Assembly (NCBI GenBank): GCA_944358495.1
Contig: CALVRF010000001.1
Span: forward strand, 1 to 39,112
DNA length: 39,112 bases
DNA from: an uncultured Bacilli bacterium
GTDB lineage: Bacteria; Bacillota_I; Bacilli_A; RF39; UBA660
Reading direction: 5' to 3'
The notes beneath the pieces were generated by a model. That model was given only the letters and a program-made list of their open reading frames with translations, did not search any database and was not told where the DNA came from. Positions 11,803 to 38,734 of the stretch are shown piece after piece (positions within the stretch are counted from its first letter, which is position 1; the number at the start of each line of letters is the position of its first letter). The position numbers and the translations under genes are program-made.

Positions 11803-11807
11803 TATAT

Positions 11808-24140: not shown

Positions 24141-24524
24141 ATGACAAAACAAGCTATTCAAGATATTTATAAGGAATATTTATCACAGTCATCTAATGCA
24201 TGTTTAGAAGAAATTAGTGCTCATGAAAATGGACACGACAATAGTGGTGGCCACCCTGACTATCATAATGATTCACATGATAATACACCAGGATTGTATA
24301 GAATAATACCACAAAATGTTAATAGTGACTACGAAAAAGGTAGTAGAACATTAGAACTATTAAAATTATATCAATCACAATCATCTATTGAGCTTTCAGA
24401 TCTAATGGGAGTTCACGAAAATGGACATGATAATAGTGGAGGCCATCCTGACTATCACAATGATTCACATGATAATACACCAGGAGTATGTCAGATGGTA
24501 TTAAAGAAACGTGCAAAACATTAA
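24141..24524 (+). CDS. candidate RiPP precursor with two tandem cassettes, each ending in the core HENGHDNSGGHPDYHNDSHDNTPG
   Basis: Strong promoter and RBS. A 24-aa module repeats exactly at aa 28-51 and 92-115, each preceded by Y-x-SQSS-x-x-L. The 3' end overlaps the radical SAM gene. Confidence 0.7.
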   Translation: MTKQAIQDIYKEYLSQSSNACLEEISAHENGHDNSGGHPDYHNDSHDNTPGLYRIIPQNVNSDYEKGSRTLELLKLYQSQSSIELSDLMGVHENGHDNSGGHPDYHNDSHDNTPGVCQMVLKKRAKH

Positions 24525-25620
24525 TACATTAATTAAACCGACGCATAGATGTAATATGCGTTGCAAATACTGTTTCCATGAAAAATATGGCTACTCTAAT
24601 GATTTATTAGATATAAATAAATTAGAAAAATATATTTCATTATTATGTTCAGAATATGATTTTATTAATATTATTTGGCATGGTGGTGAGCCATTGCTTG
24701 CCCCATTATCTTTTTATGAAGAAATTTATGATTTTTGTGACCATTTTAATAAAGAATTTCTATTTACTATTCAAACTAATGGTACATTAATTAATCAAGA
24801 AGTTGTAGATTTTTTCAGAAAAAGAAATACAAATTTTGGACTTTCATTTGATGGATTAAATAATGAATATACAAGGGGTAACACATCAAAAATTTTAGAT
24901 AGTATAGGATTATTACAAGAAAATGGTTTTAGGCCAGGAGCTGTTTTAGTTGTTAATAAAACTAACGTTTCTAATTTGATTGATGAATATAATTTTTTCA
25001 ATTCTATGGGTGTAGGATTAAAATTAAATCCAATGTTTATCGATGGAGAAGCTAAAATGCACGAAGGTGATTTAGGCTTAAATCCCGATGAGTACATAGA
25101 AAATTTTGTTGATTTTTTTAAATACTGGACTTTAGATAATAATGGTAAAATCAATGTAGCTACTTGTAATGAATTAGTTAATTTAATTTTAAACGAACAT
25201 TCAGGGGTATGTACTTTTAATTCATGTTTAGGAAAATGGTTATGTTTTGATTCCGATGCGAATATTTATCCGTGTGATCGATTATGTACTCCAGAGTATT
25301 CTTTAGGAAGTGTTGATTCATTATCTAGTATAAATCAAATATTTGAAAGTGATGTATTTTATGATTTATTAAAATCAAGTGTCGAAAGAAGAACAAAATG
25401 CATAGAAACATGTAAGTATTATAAAAACTGTTATGCAGGTTGTAATGCCAACGCAATCCTAAATAAAAATGATGGGTATGAAAATGGTGTTTCATGCTAT
25501 ATTCATAAAGGTATTTTAGAAAGAATAAAAAGTTATGTTTTAGAGAGTACCGAACAAACAGAACATTTAAATCCTCAATATGTAAAAACTCTAGAGCGTG
25601 CTAAAAATAGAAGAAGGTAA
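24511..25620 (+). CDS. radical SAM enzyme with a C-terminal SPASM-type Cys-rich domain (anSME-like peptide maturase)
   Basis: LIKPTHRCNMRCKYCFHE (CX3CX2C at residues 14-21), GGEPLL, and C-terminal Cys clusters CTFNSC...LCFDSDANIYPCDRLC...CIETCKYYKNCYAGC. The GTG start overlaps the precursor by 14 nt. Confidence 0.85.
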   Translation: MQNINTLIKPTHRCNMRCKYCFHEKYGYSNDLLDINKLEKYISLLCSEYDFINIIWHGGEPLLAPLSFYEEIYDFCDHFNKEFLFTIQTNGTLINQEVVDFFRKRNTNFGLSFDGLNNEYTRGNTSKILDSIGLLQENGFRPGAVLVVNKTNVSNLIDEYNFFNSMGVGLKLNPMFIDGEAKMHEGDLGLNPDEYIENFVDFFKYWTLDNNGKINVATCNELVNLILNEHSGVCTFNSCLGKWLCFDSDANIYPCDRLCTPEYSLGSVDSLSSINQIFESDVFYDLLKSSVERRTKCIETCKYYKNCYAGCNANAILNKNDGYENGVSCYIHKGILERIKSYVLESTEQTEHLNPQYVKTLERAKNRRR

Positions 25621-25622
25621 AT

Positions 25623-26198
25623 ATGAAAGAAAAAATAATTCCTGTATATCACGGGAGTATACATCAAGGTTTAAAAATAATTAAAAGAAATAAAAGTACT
25701 CATGGTAAGTCTTGGGTATATGCAACTTTATCTAAAGCAATTTCCACAATTTTTATAAGCAATAAAGGTAGCGATTTATATTATTATTTAAGTGGTGATG
25801 GAACAGAAAATAATCCAGTACTTTTGGTGGAAAGAAAAGAAGGTATGTTTAAAGATATTTTTAACGTTTCAGGTTCACTTTATACGTTAAGTGGCAAAAA
25901 CTTTATTTCAGGGGAAACTGGTTGGTCCGCAGAAGTGATTAGTGAATCCGATGAAAATGTAATCCATGAAGAACATATAGATAACGTTTTTGAAAAACTT
26001 AAAGAATTAAATGATATGGGAGAATTAAAACTTTATTTATACCCAAATAGACCACCTTTTCTTCCGAAAGATAATAGTGATTTAATTCCAAAAGTTATAA
26101 GATGGAGAAAAAGAGGAATAAATATCGAAACATTTTTTACATTATATCCGGAATTAAAAGAACAGTATTTAAAGCAATTAAATGAAAATGAGGAATAA
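25623..26198 (+). CDS. hypothetical protein, translationally coupled to the rSAM gene
   Basis: The ATG is 2 nt after the rSAM stop. N-terminal VYHGS...HGKSWVYAT. No family recognised. Confidence 0.6.
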   Translation: MKEKIIPVYHGSIHQGLKIIKRNKSTHGKSWVYATLSKAISTIFISNKGSDLYYYLSGDGTENNPVLLVERKEGMFKDIFNVSGSLYTLSGKNFISGETGWSAEVISESDENVIHEEHIDNVFEKLKELNDMGELKLYLYPNRPPFLPKDNSDLIPKVIRWRKRGINIETFFTLYPELKEQYLKQLNENEE

Positions 26199-26610: not shown

Positions 26611-26829
26611 AAACAATGATATAATCAATGATATTGCAAAATAAAAAACCTTATAAAATAAGGGTTAAACTACTAAATTGGTGGAGAATAAGGGTTTTAT
26701 TTATTGATATTAAATAATTTTAAAAATATGTTTTTCCTTTTAATTTCAACCATTTTAGTTTATTTAAGTTTAAAAAAATTTACAGTGAATTTATAAAAAT
26801 TAAGGAAAAAATGATATAAAAATGATATT
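26611..26829. repeat. att-type repeat copy B (tRNA-Ala 3' fragment at 26679..26694)
   Basis: TGGTGGAGAATAAGGG is identical to the tRNA-Ala 3' end. The arms are colinear with copies A and C. Confidence 0.85.
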
Positions 26830-26860: not shown

Positions 26861-27079
26861 AAAACAATGATATAACAATGATATTGAAAAATAAAAACCC
26901 TCATAAAATAAGGGCTAAACTATCAAATTGGTGGAGAATAAGAGTTTTCTTTATAAGATTTAATAAAAATTAAAAAGTTTGTTTTTCCTTTATTTTTAAG
27001 CATTTTCGTTTACTTTTGTTTAAAAAGATTTAATGTGAGTTTTTAAAAATTAAGGAAAAGATGATATAAAAATGATATA
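26861..27079. repeat. att-type repeat copy C (tRNA-Ala 3' fragment at 26929..26942); left junction of the IME
   Basis: TGGTGGAGAATAAG plus arms colinear with copies A and B. Core-to-core spacing from copy B is 250 bp. Confidence 0.85.
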
Positions 27080-27097
27080 TGATTAATACCTTTTTAA

Positions 27098-27433
27098 TTA
27101 TCTATTTTTATAAGCCTCTATAAATTCATTATCATCATAATTGTGAACATCTATTTCTATTGGTAATATATTGAAATATTTTTCTAGCTTCTCATAGACT
27201 AAAATTTTAACTTTTTCTTTATTTTCAGTTGATACTTGATAATTAGATAGATCAATAGCTAACATTTTATCAATAGTAGATACAGCAACAGCTCCTCTAA
27301 ATTTTATAAAGAAAGCAATATCAGAAGCTAAAACATAAGATAATTTGTCATTATTCTGATATAAAGCATATTCTTCTAACTTATCTTTATTATATATAGC
27401 CTTTTTATTATTGTTAAATGATAAAAATGTCAT
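27098..27433 (-). CDS. hypothetical protein (about 111 aa)
   Basis: ATG at 27433 sits 1 nt after the upstream stop (TAA-A-ATG) with GAGG upstream. The ORF-track start at 27472 would overlap by 38 nt. Confidence 0.45.
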   Translation of the reverse strand: MTFLSFNNNKKAIYNKDKLEEYALYQNNDKLSYVLASDIAFFIKFRGAVAVSTIDKMLAIDLSNYQVSTENKEKVKILVYEKLEKYFNILPIEIDVHNYDDNEFIEAYKNR

Positions 27434-27434
27434 T

Positions 27435-27713
27435 TTATTTTGCCTCAGTAATTGCGAATAGTACTCTTTCAAAAGAGTTAGAAGTGATTTCAGTAGTGTA
27501 ATAACTATTTTTATAAGGCGTTAACTTCCAATAAAAATTATTGTAGCTATAAATAATATCAATATAGAAGAAATGATTATTATATTTTACTCTAATAAGT
27601 TCGTTCTGATAAATACTTATATCATATATTTCTTTGTCTTTATATTTAAGAAATGCGGGTAATATATATTGAGTTAAAACTTCTTTTTTTTTTTGATTTA
27701 TTTTGCTTTGCAT
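27435..27713 (-). CDS. hypothetical protein (92 aa)
   Basis: Intact ORF, first gene of a two-gene coupled pair. No motif recognised. Confidence 0.45.
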   Translation of the reverse strand: MQSKINQKKKEVLTQYILPAFLKYKDKEIYDISIYQNELIRVKYNNHFFYIDIIYSYNNFYWKLTPYKNSYYTTEITSNSFERVLFAITEAK

Positions 27714-27889
27714 ATATTCCTACTTTCCATATTAAATTATTTTATGCTTGTTTTAAGCAAGTATTTTTTAGTATAAAAAGATAGAAAATTCAAATATTAA
27801 TACTATAAGTGTGATATTTATCATTAAAAAATAATGTGTATCGGAATATCGCCTAATATGCAATTATGAAATAACTTTGTAAAATTAAA

Positions 27890-28186
27890 TTGAAGAAGGT
27901 GATATTTATATTTAAGGACAATATAAACGCTGTATCTAAAGAAATTGTTAAAGTAGATTTACCAAATGGGTATTGCTTATTTAAACTTGGTAAATTGTTA
28001 AATGATAAAAATATAAGTATTAATCAATTTATGAGAGATACAGATACCGACTTCAAAACAATTAAAAAACACGCAAATGGTTTAGCACAGCAAATAGATA
28101 CATTACTAATTGATAAATGGTGTAAGTATTTAGATGTTGATGATAATGAAATTTATGAGTATATAAGAAATAAGGTTGATAATTAA
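27890..28186 (+). CDS. small HTH DNA-binding protein (Cro/C1-like), paralog 1
   Basis: GYCLFKLGKLLNDKNISINQFMRDTDT...KWCKYLDV...IYEYI aligns with the paralog at 28404. The start codon is uncertain (TTG 27890 or GTG 27899). Confidence 0.55.
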   Translation: MKKVIFIFKDNINAVSKEIVKVDLPNGYCLFKLGKLLNDKNISINQFMRDTDTDFKTIKKHANGLAQQIDTLLIDKWCKYLDVDDNEIYEYIRNKVDN

Positions 28187-28239
28187 AATCTTATTTTTTT
28201 ATTCCCCACCTTCCTAAAACGAAAAACATTAAATATTTA

Positions 28240-28284
28240 TATATACCATTTATTTAGGTATAATGACAGCTTTAATGGTATATA
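28240..28284. promoter_or_regulatory. 11-bp perfect inverted repeat bracketing a TATAAT box
   Basis: TATATACCATT (28240-28250) and AATGGTATATA (28274-28284) flank TATAAT (28259-28264). A second imperfect IR lies at 28347-28360 / 28372-28384 (GTACTTACGGAATA / TATTCGTAAGTAC). Confidence 0.5.
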
Positions 28285-28403
28285 ACAAAGATATAAAAGG
28301 TAATTTTCTAATTTCTATTTAATGTTTTTCATATTAAGTATACCCCGTACTTACGGAATAGTCAACAACGGTATTCGTAAGTACAATTATATTAGGTGGT
28401 ATA

Positions 28404-28646
28404 ATGCAGGAAAAGTATGTAAAAATAGAGGTTGAACATGGGTATTGGTTGTTTAAACTTGGTAGTTTATTAGCTGAACGTGGTATAAGTAAAAATAAAA
28501 TAATGCGTGATACTAATACAAAACACGATACTTTACAAGGGTATGTAAATGGAACTCTTAAAAGAGTAGATATAGATGTATTAGATAGATTTTGTAATTA
28601 TTTAAATTGTGATATGGTCAATATTATAGAATATATAAAAAAATAG
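28404..28646 (+). CDS. small HTH DNA-binding protein (Cro/C1-like), paralog 2
   Basis: GYWLFKLGSLLAERGISKNKIMRDTNT...RFCNYLNC...IIEYI. RBS AGGTGG upstream. Confidence 0.65.
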   Translation: MQEKYVKIEVEHGYWLFKLGSLLAERGISKNKIMRDTNTKHDTLQGYVNGTLKRVDIDVLDRFCNYLNCDMVNIIEYIKK

Positions 28647-28677
28647 CTTTTGGCATTATTGCCAAAGGCTATTTTTA
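28643..28677. terminator. bidirectional terminator between the convergent HTH and Nudix genes
   Basis: ATAGCTTTTGGCA / TGCCAAAGGCTAT 13-bp stem (one G:U pair), flanked by A- and T-runs. Confidence 0.7.
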
Positions 28678-28690
28678 TTAACAGACTCCT

Positions 28691-29095
28691 TTATTTCATA
28701 TCTATTTTGATTTCTTCAATTATATGACCAATGTTTCCTTCGCCAGCATATTTGTTCATGTCGAAGAAATTATCATTAATTGGTACCCATTCGAGTTTAT
28801 TTACTTCTTCTACGAGTGTAACATTTTTATTTAATATGCCATAATACGCTTCTAATTCTTTTCCCCACTTAACATATGACAAATTCATAAAGTGGATTAG
28901 TTCAACATCATCTTTTTTTATGTTAGTTTCTTCATAAAGTTCGCGGTAGGCCTCATTTAAGCCATCATTTTCTTTTTCAATTTTCCCACCAACAAGATTA
29001 TACATTCCCATATAAGGCTCTTTAGTTCGTTTACACATTAATGTTTGTGTCATATCTTTGTTAAAAATTACTATTACATTCATTTTTTTCATCAT
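28691..29095 (-). CDS. Nudix hydrolase
   Basis: Nudix box variant GGKIEKENDGLNEAYRELYEETNI (REx2EE present). Confidence 0.8.
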   Translation of the reverse strand: MMKKMNVIVIFNKDMTQTLMCKRTKEPYMGMYNLVGGKIEKENDGLNEAYRELYEETNIKKDDVELIHFMNLSYVKWGKELEAYYGILNKNVTLVEEVNKLEWVPINDNFFDMNKYAGEGNIGHIIEEIKIDMK

Positions 29096-29155
29096 ATCAC
29101 CTCAAGATAATTTTACCATAAATTCAAACTAAAGTATACATTTGGAACAAGAAGT

Positions 29156-31009
29156 TTAGTGTTTCACAAAATCTTCTATTTTTTGTTTAAAATATGATTG
29201 CAAATTTTTGTCCTCACAGTAAATAAAACATCCTTTAATACCTCTGGTTAATAGTACTCTATAAGCATTTTTAATTAGTTGAGTGGCAATTACGTTTGCT
29301 TTTTCCGGTTCTTTTTTCAACAATTTTTTTAGTCCCCTTAAAGATGGATCTGTTGAAGCATGATTGAGAAAGTCGGCCACAACAACTCCATTTTCATATT
29401 TCAAGTCGTTACCAATAATTACTCCAACATAATCAAATTCCAAGCCTTGTACCGAATGTATACAACCAGCTTCATTGACGGAGTCATCAATTGCAAATGT
29501 CTGTGCTTGCCCCAAATTCCAGCTCATTGCATAATCATCAATAACAATATCATGGTAATCAGGGTTGTTAGCCTCTTTTTTATTCCAATTCCAACAATAG
29601 CCTGCAAGAATTCTAGCATTTTCTGTGGTGTTAAGTTCTTTAATTGTATTCATTAATTTAGTAGGGCTTTCTATTACGTTTATATTATAATCAACCATTT
29701 CCCCACTATATTCATTATTGATTTGCAAGAGGTAATCCACAAAATTTAAATAATCATTAGAACCACTACATCTAAATTGTGATTTTAAAGTCATATTCAA
29801 AATATTTGCATTATACATTTCCGCAAAATATTTTATATTTTCTTTTGTGCCAATATCATTAAAATGTACGCGTTGTTGTTCATCAATGAAAAATATAGAT
29901 AATTTAGCGGACCTAATTATTTCTTTTATTTGATTTTCCCCATAATTATTAAAAAGTCCGGATTTTTCAGTTAAGCAATGAGCTTCATCAACAATTAACA
30001 CATCAAAAATATTTTCTTGCACATCAGTATATGACCCTGATGATTTAAATAAATTATCAATACTACTTTTTTTCATACTTTGTTTTAGTTGATATGAATA
30101 AACCACTCTTGGAGCTGTATTTCTAGATACATATTGACACAGCTTTCCTTCGTTAATAAAATATCCCAATAAATTAATTGCAACTACTGATTTTCCTGTC
30201 CCTGGTTTTCCACTAACAATAACCACAGTTTTTTCATACTTTTTTGCAACAGATATAATTCTGTCAAAAACTTCCACTTGATCATCGATTAATTTAAAAT
30301 ATTGATTATCAATGAGTAATGCTTTTATATTGTTTTGTAATTTGGCGGAAGGATTAATCTTGGAATTGTTAATTTCTTGTATTATTAATCCATTATCCCC
30401 AAATTTAATATTGTCTTCCAAAAATTTTTTTAGTAATAATTTATCATTTTTTCCGAATAAACTAACACCTTTAACAAAATCATCAAATTTTTCGTTCAAC
30501 AAATCATCATTAGGTGTTAATTCATAATTGTGTAACAAGACAACAGATTTTAAAATCACTTGATTCTGTTGAATATAGTCGTCAAAATCCTTTAATAACT
30601 CCTGATAAGACCAAACTTGATAAGCGGGATGAACTACTTTTTGGAGTCCGCCATTAATGAAAGTCTCCACCAAATAATTACTATCATCCAGCAAATGAAT
30701 TTCACTCCATTGTTTCAATTCAAAAAGAATAACGACTTTTTGTTTTTGGTCGTTATATCCACTTATAATTAAATCTACTCTTTTTGATGTCATTGGTAGA
30801 TTATATTCTAGAGTAATAGTACTATTCATAGGAATATTACAATCTTTTATTACGTTGGCAATATATCCTAATGATGAATCCCACGAATTAATTTCAGATT
30901 TTCCGACTTTTCTATATAGTTTTTTGCTCATCAAGTCATTTAAAATGGAGGATATTCCATCATCTATATCTTTTAAAAATTTTGAAACACTATTACTATA
31001 TACTATCAT
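29156..31009 (-). CDS. DUF2075-family ATPase: N-terminal PD-(D/E)xK-like module plus SF1 helicase-like P-loop domain
   Basis: N-terminus SW..SL...KRVDLIISG...VVILFELKQW (D...ExK). Walker A SGKPGTGKS, Walker B LIVDEAH, and C-terminal HSVQGLEFDYVGVIIG, typical of UvrD-like C-domains. Confidence 0.8.
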   Translation of the reverse strand: MIVYSNSVSKFLKDIDDGISSILNDLMSKKLYRKVGKSEINSWDSSLGYIANVIKDCNIPMNSTITLEYNLPMTSKRVDLIISGYNDQKQKVVILFELKQWSEIHLLDDSNYLVETFINGGLQKVVHPAYQVWSYQELLKDFDDYIQQNQVILKSVVLLHNYELTPNDDLLNEKFDDFVKGVSLFGKNDKLLLKKFLEDNIKFGDNGLIIQEINNSKINPSAKLQNNIKALLIDNQYFKLIDDQVEVFDRIISVAKKYEKTVVIVSGKPGTGKSVVAINLLGYFINEGKLCQYVSRNTAPRVVYSYQLKQSMKKSSIDNLFKSSGSYTDVQENIFDVLIVDEAHCLTEKSGLFNNYGENQIKEIIRSAKLSIFFIDEQQRVHFNDIGTKENIKYFAEMYNANILNMTLKSQFRCSGSNDYLNFVDYLLQINNEYSGEMVDYNINVIESPTKLMNTIKELNTTENARILAGYCWNWNKKEANNPDYHDIVIDDYAMSWNLGQAQTFAIDDSVNEAGCIHSVQGLEFDYVGVIIGNDLKYENGVVVADFLNHASTDPSLRGLKKLLKKEPEKANVIATQLIKNAYRVLLTRGIKGCFIYCEDKNLQSYFKQKIEDFVKH

Positions 31010-31011
31010 AA

Positions 31012-32382
31012 TTATCTCCTTGTCAAAACTTTTTGCTTGTCGGTACAGCTATATGTTAAATACTCACCGGTTATATAAGAATTATCATAAAATCTCTTTT
31101 CAATCTCTTTGTCAAAGTCAGAATCCCATAAATCGTTTGAATAGCCAAGTATTTTCTGATATGTTCCAATACTTTGTAAATATTTTTTATACATTTCATA
31201 AGAATTAAATGTCATTAAAAAGCGATTTCTACATGCAGAAATTGGAAATAAACCAGCTTCATCAACCATCCTGTCCATATCATCCAAAGTATATCTGCCA
31301 TCCAAATCTTGGGGCATAAATGTCTCTTTGAGATAATCAATGCCTGGTACTGAAAACAAGATTTTACCATTATCGGTAAGTAATTCTCTAGCTTTATTTA
31401 ATGCCAAAACTGGATTGTTTAAATGATGTAAAACATAACTAAATATTATTATATCAAAAGAGTCATTAAATTCCAAATTCATAAAGTCTTTATTTATAAA
31501 GGCTGTTTTATTTTTCCCAGAAAAAATTCTGTTTTGAGCATTTAAAATCATTTCGTCACTTATGTCAATGCCTGTAATCTCACAACCATTAAATGTCTTA
31601 TCTATTTTTCCAATTAATTTTCCAGTTCCACAGCCAATGTCAGCAATTTTCATTCCATCATTAACGCTTGATAATACTTCATTTGTAATAGGGTTTTTTA
31701 TACCGTGATATATTACAAATCTTGATTTATCATCCCATTCATCAGCCACTTTGCCCCCGAACACTTCTTCAACACCAGAAGATAGTGTGCTTTTAGATAA
31801 TTGTTCTATAAAATTATTTAACATATTTATATTGTTTGACATTTGAAATTTTGAGGTTGAGCAAGATTCAAATGCGTCGATACATTCTTCAACCATAGAA
31901 ATAGTGTCTTGGAGATTATCATTAACCACAACATAATCAAAATTTCTTGCCACAATCAAATTATTGACGTCATCTCTAATTCTGCCCGTAGATCTGTTTT
32001 CTCTTCTCAAATTTAAAGTTTCTACTGATGGCGGAAGAAGTAGAATTAAACAAGTGTTCGGATTGGCTTTTTTCATTTCTAGGGCTCTATCAGGAGTTAG
32101 CTGAAAAATAATCGTTGAATCGGAGTTGATGTTATCTATATCTTTTTCAAAACTACCATAATAGTGTCCATCATAACACTTAACATTAAACATTTCGCCT
32201 TTTTTTACATAATCTTCAAATACTTCTTTTTCCATAAAGAAATAATCAAAACCATCAATCTCTCCTTCTCGTGGTTTTCTGGTGGTACAAGTAGTAAACT
32301 TTCTAAATTTAGGGTTTTTTAATAATAGTTCAGTTATTGTACCTTTTCCTGAACCACTTGGGCCACTAAAAACTAAATTCAT
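31012..32382 (-). CDS. fusion protein: guanylate-kinase-like domain plus class I SAM-dependent methyltransferase domain
   Basis: N-terminus GPSGSGKGT P-loop and TTRKPREGEIDGFDYFF (GMP-binding signature). C-terminus IADIGCGTGKL (motif I), GIDISDEM, FDIIIFSYVLHHL. Its stop is 2 nt before the DUF2075 ATG, and that gene's AAGGAG RBS lies inside its 3' end. Confidence 0.8.
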   Translation of the reverse strand: MNLVFSGPSGSGKGTITELLLKNPKFRKFTTCTTRKPREGEIDGFDYFFMEKEVFEDYVKKGEMFNVKCYDGHYYGSFEKDIDNINSDSTIIFQLTPDRALEMKKANPNTCLILLLPPSVETLNLRRENRSTGRIRDDVNNLIVARNFDYVVVNDNLQDTISMVEECIDAFESCSTSKFQMSNNINMLNNFIEQLSKSTLSSGVEEVFGGKVADEWDDKSRFVIYHGIKNPITNEVLSSVNDGMKIADIGCGTGKLIGKIDKTFNGCEITGIDISDEMILNAQNRIFSGKNKTAFINKDFMNLEFNDSFDIIIFSYVLHHLNNPVLALNKARELLTDNGKILFSVPGIDYLKETFMPQDLDGRYTLDDMDRMVDEAGLFPISACRNRFLMTFNSYEMYKKYLQSIGTYQKILGYSNDLWDSDFDKEIEKRFYDNSYITGEYLTYSCTDKQKVLTRR

Positions 32383-32409
32383 CTATCTCACCTCTTCGTT
32401 ATGCTCGCT

Positions 32410-32438
32410 ATAATAACGCAAAATAAATTTTTTGTCAA
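32410..32438 (-). promoter_or_regulatory. near-consensus sigma-A promoter of the Gmk-MTase/DUF2075 operon
   Basis: On the minus strand: TTGACA (32438-32433), 17-nt spacer, TATTAT (32415-32410). RBS GAGGTGA precedes the ATG at 32382. Confidence 0.7.
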
Positions 32439-32583
32439 TATTTTCCATTTTATTATGTACAGAAGACCAAATTGCCTTTTACTCTTTATAAAAAAAGTCT
32501 TTGAACGTAGTTTCAAAGGCTTTTTGATGACACTATGACAGCAATTTATGGGTGGGGTAGTCCCAATTTTTACTGTCATAGTG

Positions 32584-33033
32584 TCATTTTCTTTTGTTTA
32601 TATTATCTTGAATAATTTTTTTAGTGTCATTATATGCTTTATCAATTATGACATAAATAAATATTTCCAATATTACTGTAAATAAATATAAACTAATAAA
32701 TACATATAAGTTATTTAATGAAATATTAAAGTTAGGAAAATCTTGTATAAAAATAATTGCTAAATACACAAGAGTATATAGTACTAATAAAACCGTAGTA
32801 GTATCATTTAATGACCTATTAACAAGTTCTGATTTTCTCTTATCAATATTTAAACCGTTTTTACTCCATTTACCAACACAATATACGTTACCAATTAATG
32901 TAAATGGAATTAAACACCAATATAAGCTAACCCAAAAATCATTTTGATTAATCACAAGTGCTATTACATCAATTAACAAAAATATATTACCTAAAATTTG
33001 TACTATATTAAAATATTTAATTCTTTCTCGCAT
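32584..33033 (-). CDS. small polytopic membrane protein co-transcribed with the XRE repressor
   Basis: Four predicted TM helices. ATG at 33033 is preceded by GAGAGGA. Overlaps the repressor 3' end by 17 nt. Confidence 0.55.
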   Translation of the reverse strand: MRERIKYFNIVQILGNIFLLIDVIALVINQNDFWVSLYWCLIPFTLIGNVYCVGKWSKNGLNIDKRKSELVNRSLNDTTTVLLVLYTLVYLAIIFIQDFPNFNISLNNLYVFISLYLFTVILEIFIYVIIDKAYNDTKKIIQDNINKRK

Positions 33034-33520
33034 TTTCGATCCTCTCTTTCGTTTTAGCACTATGTAATAGTTTAACAATTTCATTAGCTGAATTAATTTG
33101 ATATTCTGTATCTTCTATTGTTTGCATAGTAACTTCTTTTTCTTCTTCCGATATATTTTCATCTTTTAATCTCTTATTTAAACTATCTAATAATGATTGC
33201 CAATTATCTATACTTCCCAAAGTATTAACAAGAGCCTCATCTAATTCTTTTCCTTTTAAAGAAGAATAGTAATGTTTAAGTAATGGGTTTAATGGTGTTA
33301 CTTGAAAACCTAAGCCAGCTGCATACATTAAATCATTATAATTAACATCAATATGTTGGCTTATTTTTCGGAGTGTTTTAGGATTTGGAATTTCACGTTC
33401 TCCACTTTCAATTCGTGCTAGTTCTGTATCACTAATATTAGCCATCCTAGATAGTTCACGTTTTGATAAACCTTTAGCTTCTCTTGCTTTAGCTATCATT
33501 TGACCAACCGTTTCGTGCAT
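33017..33520 (-). CDS. XRE-family (CI-like) transcriptional repressor
   Basis: HTH GLSKRELSRMANISDTELARIESGER. ATG at 33520 is preceded by GAAAGGAGC. The ORF-track start at 33571 runs into the promoter. Confidence 0.8.
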   Translation of the reverse strand: MHETVGQMIAKAREAKGLSKRELSRMANISDTELARIESGEREIPNPKTLRKISQHIDVNYNDLMYAAGLGFQVTPLNPLLKHYYSSLKGKELDEALVNTLGSIDNWQSLLDSLNKRLKDENISEEEKEVTMQTIEDTEYQINSANEIVKLLHSAKTKERIENARKN

Positions 33521-33542
33521 AAAAAAGCTCCTTTCTGCTACC

Positions 33543-33680
33543 AATATAACATATTTTAATGATTTTTTCAACTTTTTTATCGAAAAATAACACTTTTTGC
33601 AACTTTTTGGTTGACAAAAGTGGTTTTATGGTGTGTAGTCAACTTATAAGTTGCACTTTAAATTAAATTGCAACTTAACA
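33543..33680. promoter_or_regulatory. divergent promoter/operator switch region of the IME
   Basis: Leftward TTGAAA-17-TATATT (33571-33566 / 33548-33543). Rightward TTGACA at 33611-33616. Five CAACTT/AAGTTG half-sites, including the perfect palindrome CAACTTATAAGTTG (33640-33653). Confidence 0.6.
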
Positions 33681-33916
33681 AAAGCTCTTTGACAACTGCA
33701 TAGTGTGCTTACGGTCAGACTGGCCCAGGGTTTGCTGGGAACGGGAAGTACACGTTAAACAAAGAAATCATCCTAATTTACATTAGGAGTTGTGGGTTAG
33801 CTAAAACCCTCCTTAGATACATTGCTTAAAAAGTATGTATACATCCTAAAAGGGAGTTGTCGGTAACACTAAAACCGTCATTGCTGAAAATATCATAAAA
33901 CGAAAGGGGGAAATAA

Positions 33917-34147
33917 ATGACAGCAAGTGAAACATTAAAGTTAATTGCAAAACAATGGTGTAATTTAGAAGATTTGAGAAAATTAACAGGTTTAGGAAAA
34001 AACAATGCCTTAAAATTAAAAAGTGAAATTAAAGACAATTTAGAAAGTAAAGGTTATCAGTTACCTAATAAACTATTACCAATGAGTGAAGTAGTAGAGT
34101 ATTTAAAAATCAATGTGAGTTATTTACAAGAGGTGTCAAAAAATTAG
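33917..34147 (+). CDS. small putative DNA-binding protein (excisionase/regulator-like)
   Basis: 76 aa, first rightward gene of the switch, RBS AAAGGGGGA. Function inferred from position only. Confidence 0.4.
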   Translation: MTASETLKLIAKQWCNLEDLRKLTGLGKNNALKLKSEIKDNLESKGYQLPNKLLPMSEVVEYLKINVSYLQEVSKN

Positions 34148-34165
34148 TATGGGAGAAATGATAAT

Positions 34166-35110
34166 ATGAAAACTATATCACAAATGAGAAATGAGCCAAT
34201 AAAAAAAGATTTCATAGTTGATAAACTAATGAAATCTCGGGGAGTGTATTGTCTAGTTGCAAGACCGAAAGTTGGTAAATCATTATTCGCACTTCAACTT
34301 GCCAACTCGGTTGCAAATGGACAAGAGTTTCTTGGTTTGAAAACAATTACATCTCCTGTACTATATATTAGCACAGAAATGAACTCTACACAAATTTTAG
34401 AACGTATAGATAAAATGGGTTTACAGTTTACTGATAAAAATTTCTTTTTAAAGGAGCAAGAAGTAAATGAGAGAAAATTAAATCTTATGGACTTACAATT
34501 AGATTTACAAGAATTTGCTTATGATTATGGTGGAAAACTTGTGATTATTGATATGTTATGTGGAATTAGATTAGATAATGGCTATGATATTAATAGTTAC
34601 CAAGATATTGGTCAGTATGTTATACCAAAATTTAGAGAATTAAGCAATAAATATGGTTTTACAATATTATTAATACACCATTTAAATAAAAGCAATACTT
34701 CTTTAGGTAGTACAGCTATTGATGGCTCGGTTGATGGTATGATTACTTTAAAAAAAGATAATAATATCGTAAATAAAATATTTCTTAATTATGAAAGTAG
34801 AGATTTTGAGGGGCTAGATTTGATTTTAAAAAGGAATGAAAATTTACTATTTGAAATTTCAGAGTTGGAAACCGAAGATTTAAATGTTAATTTAATCATA
34901 TTCCTAAATTATGCAATAAAACAAAGGGACTTTGAATTTACAGTATCAGAAATTACAAGCAAATTAAATTTAAATATAACACCATCACAATTTGGTAAAA
35001 TATTAAATGCTAACATAGACAACTTGCAAAAAGAGGGACTATATATAGAGCAACAAAGGAAAGCAAAGGCTAGGGTATATATCGCACAATATAAAGAGCC
35101 TTTGGAATAA
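34166..35110 (+). CDS. RecA-fold AAA ATPase (RepA/DnaB-C-terminal-like, AAA_25 type)
   Basis: Walker A ARPKVGKS, Walker B LVIIDML, and LLIHHLNKS, typical of RepA-like replicative helicases of plasmids and islands. Confidence 0.7.
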   Translation: MKTISQMRNEPIKKDFIVDKLMKSRGVYCLVARPKVGKSLFALQLANSVANGQEFLGLKTITSPVLYISTEMNSTQILERIDKMGLQFTDKNFFLKEQEVNERKLNLMDLQLDLQEFAYDYGGKLVIIDMLCGIRLDNGYDINSYQDIGQYVIPKFRELSNKYGFTILLIHHLNKSNTSLGSTAIDGSVDGMITLKKDNNIVNKIFLNYESRDFEGLDLILKRNENLLFEISELETEDLNVNLIIFLNYAIKQRDFEFTVSEITSKLNLNITPSQFGKILNANIDNLQKEGLYIEQQRKAKARVYIAQYKEPLE

Positions 35111-35131
35111 TACTTTATATATTACCTGATA

Positions 35132-35365
35132 TCAATATTCACTGAATAAGTGAATATTGAAAATAAACGTGGCACGTTTTGTTTGCGATAGCAAATGAAA
35201 GTGGCGATAGTTTATTTCTTCAATAATAATTGCTGTGGAATTATTATTGAATTAGTCTTATAGGAATAAACATAGCTTATTCCTATAAGACATAAGGGGG
35301 TTTTTAGGGAACTCCCTAAACTCACAAATGGGCTATGCCCTAGTGAGATAGGTCATAAATGACCT
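35132..35365. other. array of eight consecutive hairpins; candidate oriT (and/or replication origin)
   Basis: Perfect IRs: 35132-35160 (11 bp), 35165-35179 (6 bp), 35182-35195 (5 bp), 35219-35251 (13 bp), 35255-35291 (15 bp), 35303-35320 (8 bp), 35330-35340 (4 bp), 35350-35365 (7 bp). The array is immediately upstream of the MobV gene. Confidence 0.55.
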
Positions 35366-35389
35366 CTAAATAACTGGGGGTAATAAATA

Positions 35390-36814
35390 TTGTATGATGG
35401 AAAGCAAGTTGTGAGGGTAGAAACTAAATATAAACAGAAAGATTTGTATAATATTGGAATAGAAATGAAACAAAGAAAAGGTACTGGAAATTATGACAAA
35501 GAACGTACACCGTTTAATGTGGAGTATGTATCTATGTCTGAAAGAAATCTATATCAAGAAGTGAAACAAACCTTAAAAAGAAGAAATATTGAATATTTAA
35601 ATAAGCCTAATACTAACTTATTAAATGGTATTACGTTTACAAGTGGTAATGAATTTTTTGAGGCATTAGGTATGAAGTTTATTGATAGTGGTAGAACATA
35701 TAAAACTGGCGATAAAAAAGGACAAGCTGTTAAAACACCATATATAAAATCAAAAGAAGATATACCACAAGCTGTTAGTTATTATTTTGATAGCTGTATG
35801 GACTTTTTGAAAGAATATGTAGGCGAAGAAAATATATTGTTAGCTCAAATACATTATGATGAAGATACTCCTCATCTGCAAGCCTATTATATACCAGTAG
35901 TAAATAAGGTAAAGCGAAAATGTTATGTAAAAGATAAAGAGGGAAATGTAGTAAAAGAAGAAGTTAAAAATAAGCAAGGTAAAACTTCACTTGTTCCAAA
36001 GCTGTTAAGAGATGATAAAGGTAAAATTGTTTATGAAGAAGTTAAAGGAAAATTTTTAAACAATGATCAATTCTGGAAAAGTAAAGGTGGTAAAAATTCT
36101 TTTGCGAGATTACAAGACAATTTTAATAAATTTATTACTGAACGTGGTTTTAAATTAGATAGAGGTAATATTGGTAATGATGTAGAACATAAAACAAAAT
36201 TAGAACATCAAATAGAGGAAAATAAGGCAGAGTTAGAGGAATTACAGCTAGAAAAAGAAAGAACTAAACAAATACTTGAAGATACTAAAAATGGCTTGTT
36301 AGAGGCACAAAAATCAGCAAATAAAGAGGTTTTAAACCCTAGAAAAGGTATTGTTGGTTATAATACTAATGATGTAGTAGAAATAGTAGAATATTCCAAG
36401 AATTTGGAAAAAATCAATATATTACAGCAAAGCGAATTAAAAAATAAAGATACACTTATAACTAAATTGTCTAATGAAAATGAAAATTTTAAACAAAATA
36501 AAGAATTAATCAAAAGAAATAAAATTATTGAAGAACAAAAAGACACCATTAAAGAGCAAAAAAAGGAAATTACTAGGCTAAAAAATATAGTCAATGTTTT
36601 AGAAAATAACATTGAAAATTTAAAACAAAAATTTGAAAGAGAAATTGATAAATGGAAAAATCTATTTTCTAAAATGTGTAAAGCTATTGATAAAGTATTA
36701 AAACGAGAGCCTAAAAAATATATTGAAGATTATGAAGATTTAGCTGATAGCATTAATTATGATTACTATGATAAAGGAAAAGACAAAAATGATGATTTTG
36801 AAATGAGATTATAA
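35390..36814 (+). CDS. MobV-family (Mob/Pre) relaxase
   Basis: HYDEDTPHLQAYYIPV matches the HxDExxPH motif of pMV158 MobM-type relaxases (final His replaced by Gln). Long coiled-coil C-terminus. TTG start 9 nt after GGGGG. Confidence 0.8.
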   Translation: MYDGKQVVRVETKYKQKDLYNIGIEMKQRKGTGNYDKERTPFNVEYVSMSERNLYQEVKQTLKRRNIEYLNKPNTNLLNGITFTSGNEFFEALGMKFIDSGRTYKTGDKKGQAVKTPYIKSKEDIPQAVSYYFDSCMDFLKEYVGEENILLAQIHYDEDTPHLQAYYIPVVNKVKRKCYVKDKEGNVVKEEVKNKQGKTSLVPKLLRDDKGKIVYEEVKGKFLNNDQFWKSKGGKNSFARLQDNFNKFITERGFKLDRGNIGNDVEHKTKLEHQIEENKAELEELQLEKERTKQILEDTKNGLLEAQKSANKEVLNPRKGIVGYNTNDVVEIVEYSKNLEKINILQQSELKNKDTLITKLSNENENFKQNKELIKRNKIIEEQKDTIKEQKKEITRLKNIVNVLENNIENLKQKFEREIDKWKNLFSKMCKAIDKVLKREPKKYIEDYEDLADSINYDYYDKGKDKNDDFEMRL

Positions 36815-36858
36815 GATATTGCAAGTTTATTAATTAAGTATTATAATTTGTTTAGGAA

Positions 36859-37503
36859 GTGATATGCTTGGTAGAGATAAAACAATGGGTAAAAGATATT
36901 GTAATTTATTTTGAATTTTTGAATAACATTAATTTAAAATTATTTAAATTATGCTCTTTGGATTGTTGGAATGATATTACATCAATAGAAAAATATTATT
37001 TAGATATTTCACAAGATTTATTTAGATTATTACCTTGTTCTGCTAATACTAAATTAAAAAAAATTAATTTGATAGAAAGCGATGGCATATTTTCGATTAA
37101 TGATGGCATAGAAGAATTAAAAGGAGAAATTAAAAAATTTGTTTTAGAAAATAATGATATTTTATATACTATTAAATATATTAGAAATAAAACTGAACAT
37201 ATGCCTCATAAACTTAAAGCAGAAGGATTTTATAGTGGAAGTACGGGAAGTGATATACGATTTTCCTATGAAAATGAAAGTTTAAACATAAATTTTAATG
37301 ATTTGAAAAAGTTAGTTATTAAGTTAAATGAAATATTTATAAAAATGCAAAATGATTTGTCAAAATATCAAAATCAATTATCAGAGGAATACAAGACCTA
37401 TCCTTGTTGGGATTACTTAAAAAGTATGAATTTTGAAATATATAATAAATTACTTTTAAGTGAAAATTTATATGACATTTCATTTGTTATCAACAAATAT
37501 TAA
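36859..37503 (+). CDS. hypothetical cargo protein with an RNxxxH (HEPN-like) motif
   Basis: KYIRNKTEHMPH contains R-N-x-x-x-H. The start is uncertain (GTG 36859, or TTG 36868 nine nt after AGGAAG). Confidence 0.45.
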   Translation: MICLVEIKQWVKDIVIYFEFLNNINLKLFKLCSLDCWNDITSIEKYYLDISQDLFRLLPCSANTKLKKINLIESDGIFSINDGIEELKGEIKKFVLENNDILYTIKYIRNKTEHMPHKLKAEGFYSGSTGSDIRFSYENESLNINFNDLKKLVIKLNEIFIKMQNDLSKYQNQLSEEYKTYPCWDYLKSMNFEIYNKLLLSENLYDISFVINKY

Positions 37504-37589
37504 TATATTTAAATTAAAGATTATTATAGTAGAAAGTAAGTAAAACTTTTTATATTAATAATCTTTTTTGTTTGGGAGGTGAGAGCAAT

Positions 37590-38687: not shown

Positions 38688-38693
38688 CAAAAA

Positions 38694-38730
38694 CTAGGAG
38701 CTATGAAAGTAGCTCCTAGAATTTTTTTTT
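38694..38730 (+). terminator. rho-independent terminator after int
   Basis: CTAGGAGCT / AGCTCCTAG 9-bp stem, 8-nt loop, 9-T run. Confidence 0.8.
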
Positions 38731-38734
38731 GAAA

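Follow-up and report, generated by a model that had tools for sequence, protein, structure and literature searches.

The operon analysed here joins a gene for a fusion of a guanylate kinase (Gmk)-like domain with a methyltransferase (MTase), a DUF2075 gene and a Nudix gene, a trio that forms a conserved module in metagenome-assembled genomes (MAGs) of gut Bacilli and Clostridia from dozens of species. We tentatively favour the reading that the module is a mobile-element-borne system against phages or other mobile genetic elements (MGEs), arranged around an Nhi-like nuclease-helicase and equipped with a putative producer (MTase plus NMP kinase) and a putative sanitiser (Nudix hydrolase) of a methylated purine nucleotide. 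The window, i.e. the whole stretch of DNA analysed, comprises 39,112 nucleotides from an uncultured Bacilli bacterium. A sequence-only reading of it had described a promoter, the fusion gene, a 2-nt junction, the DUF2075 and Nudix genes and a terminator, all of which are present:

32410-32438, minus strand: sigma-70-type operon promoter TTGACA-17-TATTAT, the top-scoring site (11/12) in 28300-33800
31012-32382, minus strand: fusion gene (Gmk-like::class I MTase), 456 aa
31858-32382, minus strand: Gmk-like NMP-kinase domain, aa 1-175 of the fusion (Pfam PF00625 Guanylate_kin, aa 3-170, E 9e-25)
31012-31797, minus strand: class I SAM MTase half of the fusion, aa ~196-456, plus stop codon (Pfam Methyltransf_11/12/25/31)
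29156-31009, minus strand: DUF2075 gene, 617 aa
30530-31009, minus strand: RecB/Cas4-like PD-(D/E)xK nuclease, N-terminal in the DUF2075 protein, aa ~1-160 (alignment)
29156-30232, minus strand: SF1B helicase (DUF2075 / Schlafen group 3 helicase), to the stop codon (PF09848, E 1.6e-92)
29096-29155, minus strand: 60-nt spacer between the DUF2075 and Nudix genes, containing an extended -10 box similar to TGgTAAAAT and the RBS GAGGTG
28691-29095, minus strand: Nudix gene, 134 aa (PF00293)
28649-28666, minus strand: hairpin resembling a terminator, with T-runs on either strand, where the Nudix and HTH_26 genes converge

Promoter-like sites are as numerous across this AT-rich region as expected from shuffling (36 observed vs 36.6 expected), and the promoter call thus rests on the position and quality of the site, not on statistics. 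Direct reading of the junction showed the TAA stop codon of the fusion gene, 2 nt and then the ATG of the DUF2075 gene, which is preceded by an AAGGAG sequence within the final codons of the fusion gene.

The operon is carried by a small element that is spreading actively among gut bacteria. Pfam labels of the element genes were taken from identical element copies:

26928-38878, no strand assigned: integrative mobilizable element (IME) carrying the operon, ~11.9 kb, bounded by a tRNA-Ala gene and a direct repeat
38802-38878, minus strand: tRNA-Ala gene at the element boundary
26928-26942 and 38801-38815: direct repeat of the tRNA-Ala 3' end, TTGGTGGAGAATAAG, bounding the element
37572-38687: integrase
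35390-36814: Mob_Pre
34166-35110: AAA_25
33917-34147: Xis-like gene
33017-33571: XRE gene
32584-33084: orf166
27890-28186 and 28404-28646: two HTH_26 genes

The identical 11.9-kb element is contained in 248 index blocks and was found between at least four different sets of chromosomal flanks. A neighbourhood check, which the sequence-only reading had called for, clearly revealed co-occurrence of the fusion with DUF2075 and Nudix genes across genomes, on mobile elements. The module might benefit the element and not the host, as an anti-defence or competition device that, for example, methylates and hydrolyses nucleotide immune signals or alarmones, with a nuclease-helicase for processing the element's own DNA or for excluding rival elements. 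Such a role would agree with the trio being the main cargo of the IME, with other copies beside large serine recombinases or within an ICE, and with one standalone MTase relative that directly follows relA/spoT; signalling nucleotides can be substrates of Nudix enzymes and of kinases. We nevertheless consider it quite unlikely, because the fetched sequence at trio loci L041-43 contains no mobility gene, DUF2075 orthologues occur in restriction-modification (R-M) or defence islands, the architecture equals that of known defence proteins, and no relative was found on the viral contigs and phage genomes searched, where anti-defence genes are common.

Wherever downstream sequence was available, the DUF2075 gene directly follows the MTase gene, except in L021, L022 and L047, and a gap of 1-5 nt separates it from the fusion genes. 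The Nudix gene shares the strand of the module and is located either upstream or downstream depending on the locus. This variable position fits independent expression of the Nudix gene, possibly from a promoter of its own in the spacer behind the DUF2075 gene. Between loci, the trio has otherwise unrelated flanks, and these are not consistently defence islands. Nudix-MTase pairs without DUF2075 are found in chromosomal, non-MGE contexts (L048-50, L064-67), with Ogt/Tag/ITPase-like genes or relA-hisS as surroundings, and five of six lineages of standalone MTase relatives (36-44% identity) keep an adjoining Nudix gene. Because of these chromosomal pairs, the Nudix-MTase pair may have a housekeeping role and may simply have been co-opted; together with the ability of DUF2075 to stand alone, they would also suit nucleotide or cofactor housekeeping genes that hitch-hike, functionally uncoupled, beside an autonomous Nhi-like gene. 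This is very unlikely, however, since adjacency is kept across 52-100% sequence divergence, with the short gene gaps wherever the fusion is present, linkage of the Nudix gene is retained despite its permuted position, and several unrelated mobile elements carry the genes together. Moreover, two different Nudix-MTase pairs have been joined to one DUF2075 clade, the second being that of L062, where the DUF2075 protein shows 54% identity.

The DUF2075 protein had been taken for a nuclease/helicase-like ATPase. Nuclease and helicase were both recovered, and the protein is not an unknown, since sequence and structural comparison assign it the architecture of Nhi and Nhi-like nuclease-helicases, an established single-gene anti-phage type (Nhi is S. 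epidermidis SERP2475). An alignment of 22 homologues revealed invariant nuclease residues (E68, D79, E97-x-K99, Q131-x3-Y135). The SLFN-g3_helicase/DUF2075 Pfam match spans aa 260-600 and includes the invariant Walker A (G267-S274) and DEAH (341-344) motifs; RecD2, RecD, Dna2, Dda, Upf1 and SLFN14 were matched by Foldseek. In common with Nhi and Nhi-like proteins, one protein of ~600 aa combines a PD-(D/E)xK nuclease at its N-terminus with a DUF2075 SF1B helicase behind it and has Dda, Upf1, Dna2 and RecD2 as nearest structural neighbours; the DUF2075 gene of the present module likewise stands alone in some loci. In contrast to Nhi, the protein matches only the candidate model PDC-S41 (aa 2-281, E 5.7e-19) and no named Nhi model in PADLOC-DB. 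Its gene is translationally coupled to the MTase(-kinase) gene, and a Nudix gene is linked to it, whereas the consulted literature passages on Nhi and Nhi-like proteins mention no partner genes.

A merger of two genes by a sequencing frameshift, which had been considered for the fusion, was ruled out: about 50 independent full-length clusters (454-459 aa) match with 54-65% identity across both halves and the linker. The fusion is thus genuine and more than chance. Its AF2 model (pTM 0.58) is uninformative on the arrangement of the two domains.

The kinase half shares fold, P-loop, TTRxxR, Tyr and lid arginines with Gmk (EC 2.7.4.8) and shows 27-30% sequence identity to solved Gmks. P-loop, TTR, R38, Y47, Y75 and the lid arginines are retained in the fusion, as is every catalytic and phosphate-binding residue, and K13, R35, R38, Y47, Y75, S77, R130 and R134 are conserved in the family. 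It differs from Gmk by its fusion to an MTase, by a TIGR03263 score (118.6 bits) below the guanylate kinase equivalog cut-off of NCBIfam (160.45) and by the loss of all three acidic guanine-edge residues. According to PDB Gmk alignments and a residue census, N66, Q94 and T96 take the place of E69, D98 and D100 (yeast numbering) in 27 of 27 members of the family; the guanine-edge role of E69 and D100 is what we take from the 1GKY structure. These replacements make the previously proposed action on a guanine nucleotide doubtful. Most modules contain the Gmk domain, but the Gmk-less trios L046 and L062 look functional. Thus, the kinase step is not essential and the domain is dispensable to the module.

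In the other half, class I MTase families of Pfam match aa ~240-350 (E 1e-18 to 1e-21), and the motifs DxGCGxG, D273, D299-F300 and FSYVLHH are invariant. This half also has a C-terminal subdomain and, at its N-terminus, a conserved helical lid, and invariant basic and aromatic residues occur also outside the SAM site. The AF2 pLDDT is 88.6, and the Foldseek neighbours are BioC, 3ccf and PEAMT; sequence and fold neighbours are small-molecule MTases without exception. The MTase half is accordingly predicted to be of small-molecule type, for which reason a role on nucleic-acid ends, the second substrate suggested earlier, is not favoured.

The Nudix gene product matches Pfam NUDIX PF00293 (E 5.6e-10) and PADLOC PDC-S07 (E 1.4e-10) and retains the Nudix box R51-E52-x2-E55-E56 in the alignment. 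Its membership had been regarded as less certain, but the opposite is the case: with 74-86% identity across loci, compared to 52-68% for the partner proteins, no other member of the module is as constant or as well conserved. Intact fusion and intact Nudix genes occur together in 25 loci, the intactness census contained no intact fusion without an intact Nudix gene, and the fusion is disrupted in all four loci without Nudix; these loci are not phylogenetically independent, and frameshifts in MAGs may be assembly errors. The fusion and the Nudix hydrolase depend on each other and make up an enzyme pair whose predicted substrate is a nucleotide-like small molecule.

The DUF2075 gene, on the other hand, survives loss of both partners. 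It is full-length beside at least four independent large fusion deletions (L026, L032, L036, L038/39), and four further loci have intact DUF2075 with neither an intact fusion nor Nudix. Consequently, the nuclease is tolerated without its supposed protective mark. This speaks against R-M-like self-marking, in which a methylated dNTP would enter resident DNA ahead of replication or in its course while the nuclease-helicase restricts unmarked incoming DNA. The enzyme set (NTP pyrophosphatase, base modifier, dedicated NMP kinase) would fit phage pre-replicative logic, and the tight coupling of the MTase gene to the nuclease gene is reminiscent of R-M operons; as DUF2075 orthologues in other phyla lack any MTase as well, we regard self-marking as very unlikely.

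The DUF2075 clade habitually adjoins an NTP pyrophosphatase (NTP-PPase), which is MazG-like in distant phyla and Nudix here. On plasmids, MazG-like genes adjoin DUF2075 orthologues of 36-44% identity in Marivirga, Halalkalicoccus, Halomonas and Priestia, an NTP-PPase - HNH - DUF2075 - HD cluster occurs on Bacillus plasmids, and several orthologues with an NTP-PPase partner are those located in R-M or defence islands. These pairs share with the present module the DUF2075 clade (24-44% full-length identity) beside a small NTP pyrophosphohydrolase; they differ in that the pyrophosphatase is all-alpha MazG-like instead of Nudix and that neither MTase nor kinase is present. No description of such pairs was found in the literature searched. 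The recurrence of NTP-PPase partners would be expected if the Nudix hydrolase, like the MazG-like partners elsewhere, were the real co-effector, hydrolysing canonical or phage-modified (d)NTPs and starving phage replication, with the nuclease-helicase breaking down phage DNA; all that the MTase-kinase would then do is trap the resulting NMP or divert it from salvage, yielding no bioactive methylated NTP. Also in line with such depletion or sanitation of the pool, Nudix and DUF2075 persist at loci with a decayed fusion, a variant of HD_3 (YfbR-like dNMP nucleotidase), Nudix and MTase resembles a complete dNTP-to-nucleoside drain, DUF3578 and DUF3883 partners beside DUF2075 relatives hint at restriction of modified DNA, and an NTP phosphoesterase with a monophosphatase is a precedent for a dNTP-depleting effector (10.64898/2026.01.15.699771). 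Nevertheless, depletion appears unlikely, since a kinase that re-phosphorylates NMPs would counteract it, and since it leaves unexplained both why no intact fusion occurs without Nudix and why the kinase lost its guanine-reading residues. Furthermore, purifying selection acts most strongly on Nudix, which sets it apart from effector or sensor proteins with their fast evolution.

In the tentatively favoured reading, production of a methylated nucleotide, the Nudix hydrolase would cleave a purine (d)NTP, giving the (d)NMP, and would hydrolyse the modified triphosphate as well. The MTase would then act on the NMP and methylate its base, probably at the N1/N2 (or N6) edge. The methylated NMP would be rejected by housekeeping kinases and re-phosphorylated by the Gmk-like kinase, which has no carboxylates for reading the unmodified guanine edge, and host NDP kinase would finish the methylated (d)NTP; base identity, methylation site and order of reactions are all what we infer. 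The product may be harmful or regulatory, i.e. a poison, mark or signal: against replicating invader DNA it could serve as a polymerase poison or as a DNA mark; alternatively, the co-translated helicase could bind it as a ligand. Nudix would hold it low in uninfected cells, and the nuclease-helicase would then degrade invader DNA.

Phage T4 modifies nucleotides before replication by means of gp56 (dCTPase), gp42 (dCMP hydroxymethylase) and gp1 (dNMP kinase). Both pathways would combine an NTP pyrophosphatase with a base modifier that works on NMPs and, for the modified base, a dedicated NMP kinase. The present proteins (Nudix, class I SAM MTase, Gmk-like) are however non-homologous to those of T4, and the module is cellular or MGE-borne, not phage-borne, linked to a nuclease-helicase and presumably directed at purine rather than pyrimidine chemistry. 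Methylated dNMP ligands and NTP-phosphoesterase effectors have a precedent in defence, the PUA-Calcineurin-CE-HAD system, which is triggered by m6-dAMP (10.64898/2026.01.15.699771). There, as would be the case here, a methylated deoxynucleoside monophosphate is central to immunity, and NTP phosphoesterases (MazG-like in some variants) and a monophosphatase act on the nucleotide pool; its methylated nucleotide, however, is set free when Dam-methylated DNA is degraded and is sensed rather than made by the system, its proteins are non-homologous to ours, and a nuclease-helicase is missing (10.64898/2026.01.15.699771). Two components of MADS, the methylation-associated defence system, are weakly matched in PADLOC, mad2 by the MTase core (6e-17) and mad8 by the P-loop region of the helicase (1e-3), but these matches cover generic Rossmann and P-loop cores only, and the present MTase is predicted to act on small molecules; the five window ORFs scanned against PADLOC matched no further mad model.

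In agreement with the failure of the sequence-only reading to recognise the trio, no named system in PADLOC-DB or in the literature searched matches it. Of the new immunity or nucleotide-signalling module proposed there, the genomic association is confirmed, while a guanine substrate is doubtful and action on nucleic-acid ends is not favoured. An immunity function is what we infer for the module, and as judged from its genes the trio is probably an undescribed defence variant working through a methylated nucleotide.

The sequence-only reading had placed three genes in one operon on the minus strand at 28691-32438. ORF calls, Pfam searches and inspection of the junctions found this layout exactly as described.

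Genes of the operon (ORF calls)
31012-32382, minus strand: fusion of a guanylate kinase (Gmk)-like domain with a class I SAM methyltransferase, 456 aa
29156-31009, minus strand: DUF2075 nuclease-helicase, 617 aa
28691-29095, minus strand: Nudix hydrolase, 134 aa

The Pfam family Guanylate_kin covers aa 3-170 of the fusion (E 9e-25), class I methyltransferase families match at aa ~240-350, and SLFN-g3_helicase/DUF2075 (PF09848) occupies aa 260-600 of the second ORF (E 1.6e-92). Two bases separate the TAA of the fusion gene from the ATG of the DUF2075 gene, and an AAGGAG sequence lies within the last codons of the fusion. The 60-nt gap between DUF2075 and Nudix contains a TGgTAAAAT-like box, and a hairpin with T-runs on both sides is found 3' of the Nudix stop. 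The element TTGACA-17-TATTAT at 32438-32410 is the top promoter match of the region and plausible as promoter of the operon; it is not proven, since the region holds no more promoter-like sites overall than shuffled sequence does. No riboswitch or other RNA element pointing to a ligand was found near the module at nine loci. Immediately upstream of the promoter (32584-33571, minus strand) an XRE repressor-like gene overlaps a gene for a predicted membrane protein of 149-166 aa without a family match; the two may form a regulatory pair of the mobile element.

A search of 5.8 billion proteins yielded about 50 full-length clusters of the fusion (454-459 aa, 54-65% identity), together with standalone methyltransferases of ~258 aa (36-46% identity) and fragments. 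When 27 full-length members were aligned, the two domains and the linker between them all proved conserved (mean column identity 71%). The independent full-length clusters and the conserved linker rule out a frameshift or assembly artefact, and two genes merged by a frameshift, which had been named as a possible refutation of the proposal, are not the case. The AlphaFold model of the fusion is confident (pLDDT 88.6) and leaves the mutual placement of the two domains undefined (pTM 0.58). The methyltransferase half belongs to a small family of 17 mostly standalone representatives at E <= 1e-30, and in an exhaustive search with this half alone the Gmk fusion was the only recurrent N-terminal fusion. 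Two further candidates were discarded. P0063, a Gmk joined to a His-phosphatase, resembles a deletion that connected the module to adjacent chromosomal His_Phos_1 and Peptidase_S51 genes, and at L046 (L-numbers denote loci fetched from other genomes) the 193-aa upstream ORF has neither a P-loop nor a Pfam match, so that this locus is a Gmk-less variant and not a naturally split fusion.

Plasmid searches with the fusion matched only canonical gmk and bioC, and the operon had no megablast match in phages or plasmids. An origin from a phage or a phage nucleotide-modification cluster was rejected: no relatives were found on viral contigs in IMG/VR, and INPHARED returned only generic Gmk genes. The top INPHARED match (L074, GenBank MT835604, 'Bacteriophage sp.') is a yicC-remA-gmk-priA-def locus with a canonical Gmk; at least the fetched region does not look viral and appears to be a bacterial locus misfiled as phage.

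Forty loci fetched from species-representative genomes were compared by tblastn, ORF clustering and a census of gene intactness. Nearly all derive from metagenome-assembled genomes (MAGs) of gut bacteria, namely uncultured Bacilli, Clostridia, 'Tenericutes' and Acholeplasma sp. CAG:878. Wherever downstream sequence exists, the DUF2075 gene lies directly 3' of the methyltransferase gene, with the exception of L021, L022 and L047, and the gap following fusion genes is 1-5 nt. Nudix shares the strand of its partners and occupies one of two positions, 3' of DUF2075, which is its place in the window, or directly 5' of the fusion. The same partners were recovered when the search was started from three DUF2075 sub-branches (53-63% identity), and apart from the trio the flanking genes are unrelated between loci. 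The co-occurrence of methyltransferase(-Gmk), DUF2075 and Nudix across genomes, raised as a check on the sequence-only reading, was thus observed on one strand and amid unrelated flanks. Two less likely explanations, that housekeeping genes are merely hitch-hiking and that the operon serves a selfish or anti-defence role for the element, fit poorly with this conserved coupling.

In the census, whose counts are not phylogenetically independent and in which some frameshifts are possibly MAG errors, fusion and Nudix were both intact at 25 loci, and no intact fusion was accompanied by an absent or partial Nudix gene. At all four loci without Nudix (L005, L019, L023, L024) the fusion is disrupted and DUF2075 intact. 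Furthermore, at least four independent large deletions in the fusion (L026, L032, L036, L038/39) keep DUF2075 at full length. These observations suggest that methyltransferase(-kinase) and Nudix are a mutually dependent pair, that an active fusion without Nudix is not tolerated, and that DUF2075 is autonomous and not a toxin neutralised by the fusion. Self-marking in the manner of a restriction-modification (R-M) system is disfavoured, since DUF2075 persists where the fusion has been lost.

The Nudix-methyltransferase pair extends beyond the operon. Standalone methyltransferase relatives have an adjacent Nudix gene in five of the six lineages sampled, a relA-linked copy being the only one without. 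At L029-33 (e.g. L030 6768-8756) an HD_3 gene (YfbR-like 5'-deoxynucleotidase), Nudix and a standalone methyltransferase make up a unit of three genes by a tyrosine recombinase, without DUF2075. A Nudix-methyltransferase pair with 40-43% identity to that of the window (L048 3535-6777, L049, L050) lies immediately 3' of Tag (3-methyladenine glycosylase) and an Ogt-like gene (PF01035), near an ITPase-like NTPase; these neighbours, with functions in alkylated-purine repair and pool sanitation and seen in this one lineage, may hint at the chemistry of the methyltransferase. The order Nudix-methyltransferase-DUF2075, without the Gmk domain, was found at L062/63 and the pair Nudix-methyltransferase at L064-67. 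DUF2075 of L062 is 54% identical to that of the window, its methyltransferase only 41%, and its Nudix gave no tblastn match; therefore the same helicase clade has been joined to two different Nudix-methyltransferase pairs.

Substrate preferences of the kinase domain were assessed by profile alignment to solved guanylate kinases and a residue census of 27 members. The P-loop, the Arg and Tyr residues binding the GMP phosphate and the lid arginines are kept, and 26-27 of the 27 members share K13, R35, R38, Y47, Y75, S77, R130 and R134. All 27 carry N66, Q94 and T96 where yeast Gmk has E69, D98 and D100; of these, E69 and D100 presumably hydrogen-bond guanine N1/N2 (1GKY structure). Canonical Gmks in the same alignment retain E and E/D at the guanine-edge positions, so the carboxylates that read guanine N1/N2 in guanylate kinases are lacking in the fusion family. 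The fusion scores 118.6 bits against TIGR03263, the NCBIfam guanylate kinase equivalog, which is below the cut-off of 160.45. As the phosphate-binding residues are kept, the guanine-edge acids replaced and the score below cut-off, the Gmk-like domain should still phosphorylate some nucleoside monophosphate (NMP), and unmodified GMP is probably not its substrate.

The hallmarks of class I SAM methyltransferases, D248-x-G-C-G-x-G254, D273 and D299-F300, are invariant in the C-terminal half, and Pfam matches are above their cut-offs. Its top sequence and fold neighbours are BioC, the Tam-like protein 3ccf, phosphoethanolamine N-methyltransferases (PEAMT) and uncharacterised small methyltransferases, with a Foldseek probability of 1.0 against BioC, 3ccf and PEAMT; no DNA or RNA methyltransferase is among the neighbours listed. 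Motif IV reads FSYVLHH, and the invariant positions beyond the SAM site include several basic and aromatic residues. Judged by these features, the METHYLTRANSFERASE of the fusion is predicted to be a small-molecule enzyme. A DNA methyltransferase of an R-M system was rejected, as the catalytic motifs (D/N/S)PP(Y/F) and PCQ are replaced by FSYVLHH and none of the neighbours listed is of this kind. The sole match of DNA-methyltransferase type was a weak 'MTase_II' hit in PADLOC restricted to the SAM-binding core. Motifs, fold neighbours and absent partners likewise rule out membership in R-M systems or in MADS, a mad1-8 locus with a DNA methyltransferase; unlike MADS, the operon gives only partial-domain matches to mad2 and mad8, and PADLOC returned no other mad-model match among five ORFs of the window scanned.

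Nudix is the most conserved member of the trio (74-86% identity vs 52-68% for fusion and DUF2075). It matches PF00293 with 39.8 bits (cut-off 21.1) and PDC-S07 in PADLOC, and received no equivalog assignment in NCBIfam. Within the Nudix box (Gx5Ex7REUxEExGU) G37, R51-E52-L53, E55-E56 and I59 are kept; departures are N43 at the +6 position, which is E in standalone relatives, and N58 in place of the penultimate G. L044 (7407-7901) and L045 carry, directly 3' of the Nudix gene of the module, an additional and different Nudix gene (164 aa).

The Schlafen helicase module has its prokaryotic relatives in the Nhi-like/DUF2075 proteins. In 22 homologues of the DUF2075 protein E68, D79, E97-x-K99 and Q131-x3-Y135, a RecB/Cas4-type PD-(D/E)xK signature, are invariant, as are Walker A (GxPGTGKS) and DEAH. 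The AlphaFold model (pLDDT 78.6, pTM 0.77) matched in Foldseek the SF1B helicases RecD2, RecD, Dna2, Dda, Upf1 and Ighmbp2 as well as human SLFN14. By architecture, an N-terminal nuclease and a C-terminal SF1B helicase domain, the protein is an Nhi-like nuclease-helicase. According to the published accounts, Nhi has the same nuclease-helicase architecture and the same structural neighbours, the architecture is also that of the 'Nhi-like' defence protein and counts as one of the recently studied nuclease-NTPase systems, and Nhi and Nhi-like are said to share no sequence identity. PADLOC-DB v2 returned for DUF2075 only PDC-S41 (a candidate family, matched in the N-terminal region) and a weak match to mad8.

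Plasmids from very distant taxa encode full-length relatives of this protein, and the gene neighbourhoods of these relatives were inspected singly.

Genes beside distant DUF2075 relatives
Marivirga (44% identity): MazG-like gene directly upstream
Halalkalicoccus (41% identity): MazG-like gene 5 nt upstream
Halomonas (42% identity): MazG-like ORF of 87 aa ~600 bp downstream
Priestia (36% identity): mutT - DUF3578 - nucleotide pyrophosphohydrolase - DUF2075, between restriction genes
Bacillus cereus-group plasmids (24% identity): NTP pyrophosphohydrolase - HNH endonuclease - DUF2075 - HD protein
Streptomyces and one Hymenobacter copy: DUF3883 as partner
Methanosphaera: DUF2075 gene solo
MazG-like genes by full-length orthologues at fetched loci: L054 4390-5004; L055 4648-4995; L057 6590-6853; L059 3612-3941; also listed, L061 2322-6731

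The pairing of MazG-like genes with DUF2075 spans Bacteroidota, Haloarchaea, Gammaproteobacteria and Bacillota. From these neighbourhoods it follows that an NTP pyrophosphatase beside this helicase clade is recurrent, and the Nudix gene of the window fills that slot. Pure depletion or sanitation of the nucleotide pool by Nudix agrees with the MazG and HD partners; it leaves the kinase and the dependence of the fusion on Nudix unexplained. At its left edge the window itself has a small MazG-like NTP pyrophosphohydrolase gene (627-947, plus strand; PF12643, E 1e-8) beside a 126-aa ORF without assignment. This gene has no relation to the operon and is of the same enzyme class as the DUF2075 partners elsewhere.

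The operon of the window is carried by an integrative mobilizable element. The 3' end of tRNA-Ala (38802-38878) is repeated at 26928, 26678 and 23923, and the element bounded by the repeats (~11.9 kb) encodes an integrase, a Mob_Pre relaxase and an AAA_25 ATPase and also contains Xis-like and XRE genes. Exact copies of the fusion protein of the window occur in 248 indexed blocks of public assemblies, and the identical element recurs with at least four distinct sets of flanking chromosomal sequence. In one copy (L072 5737-6942) an insertion of an IS110-family transposase separates the Mob_Pre gene from the AAA_25 gene. Other lineages have the trio next to a large serine recombinase (~13 loci) or, in one lineage, within an ICE that also encodes a T4SS coupling protein and MobL. 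Enrichment of the flanks for defence islands was rejected, as only scattered matches (AbiJ, DRT-type RTs, some PDCs) occur amid mostly housekeeping and mobility genes.

In total four copies of the tRNA-Ala 3' end, TTGGTGGAGAATAAG..., are present (23923-23938, 26678-26694, 26928-26942, 38801-38817), which suggests that elements integrated serially or in tandem at a single att site. Between the first two copies (24141-26198) a 127-aa protein with two copies of HENGHDNSGGHPDYHNDSHDNTPG, a radical SAM enzyme (24511-25620) and a 191-aa protein without assignment are encoded in this order; the arrangement looks like a RiPP-type precursor and maturase cassette in an older island remnant stacked at the same tRNA-Ala. 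Elsewhere in the window an MvaI/BcnI-family restriction endonuclease gene (11985-12746, minus strand; PF15515, E 1.5e-40) lies directly after a cluster of 12 tRNAs (10150-11884), and no adjacent methyltransferase was noticed.

The analysis establishes an intact nuclease-helicase of known defence architecture, its tight linkage and its mobility; the further parts of the module are, as predicted from conserved residues and profile matches, a kinase acting on an NMP whose base is modified or is not guanine, a small-molecule methyltransferase and Nudix. In the hydroxymethyl-dCTP route of phage T4 an NTP pyrophosphatase is followed by base modification at the NMP level and then by a dedicated NMP kinase. 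By analogy, the three enzymes could form a pathway of this kind ending in a methylated purine (d)NDP or (d)NTP. Nudix would supply the pathway with substrate and also degrade its product, so that the level would stay low in uninfected cells, while product and nuclease-helicase would jointly act against invading DNA. The product might poison polymerases, mark freshly replicated DNA of the invader or bind the co-translated helicase as a ligand. Our tentative proposal, which we consider possible rather than probable, is that a cellular immune module borne by a mobile genetic element makes a methylated purine (d)NTP de novo (Nudix, then methyltransferase, then re-tooled kinase) for antiviral use; the product would serve as poison, licensing mark or activating ligand for the Nhi-like nuclease-helicase, with Nudix as antidote. 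Precedent for both halves of this proposal is given by m6-dAMP, a methylated dNMP that can be an immune ligand, and by MazG-like phosphoesterases that together with a monophosphatase are dNTP-depleting effectors (preprint 10.64898/2026.01.15.699771).

While the effector groups with Nhi/Nhi-like by architecture, the trio, the Gmk-like::methyltransferase fusion and the MazG/Nudix-helicase partnership are absent from PADLOC-DB and from the papers found by literature search, which also gave no description of DUF2075 partner genes or of the MazG-like pairing; in the sources searched they have not been described previously. What emerges is one large DUF2075/Nhi-like clade habitually partnered with nucleotide-hydrolysing enzymes, a partner set that in gut Bacilli extends to a hydrolase, a methyltransferase and a putatively re-specified NMP kinase. 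Known immune nucleotides include ddhCTP, cyclic oligonucleotides and m6-dAMP. If the proposal is true, a methylated nucleotide would represent a new immune chemistry, SAM-dependent methylation of the free nucleotide pool, and the first such pathway in immunity. It would account for the NTP pyrophosphatase partners of DUF2075/Schlafen-type helicases across bacteria and archaea, and would offer a testable handle on the regulation of Schlafen-type helicases. With 3.7 kb the cassette is compact; it is also abundant in human-gut metagenomes (the identical protein in the 248 index blocks), and the 11.9-kb element that carries it is active. These properties make the cassette easy to clone and relevant to phage-host dynamics in the poorly studied RF39/Acholeplasma-like gut bacteria.
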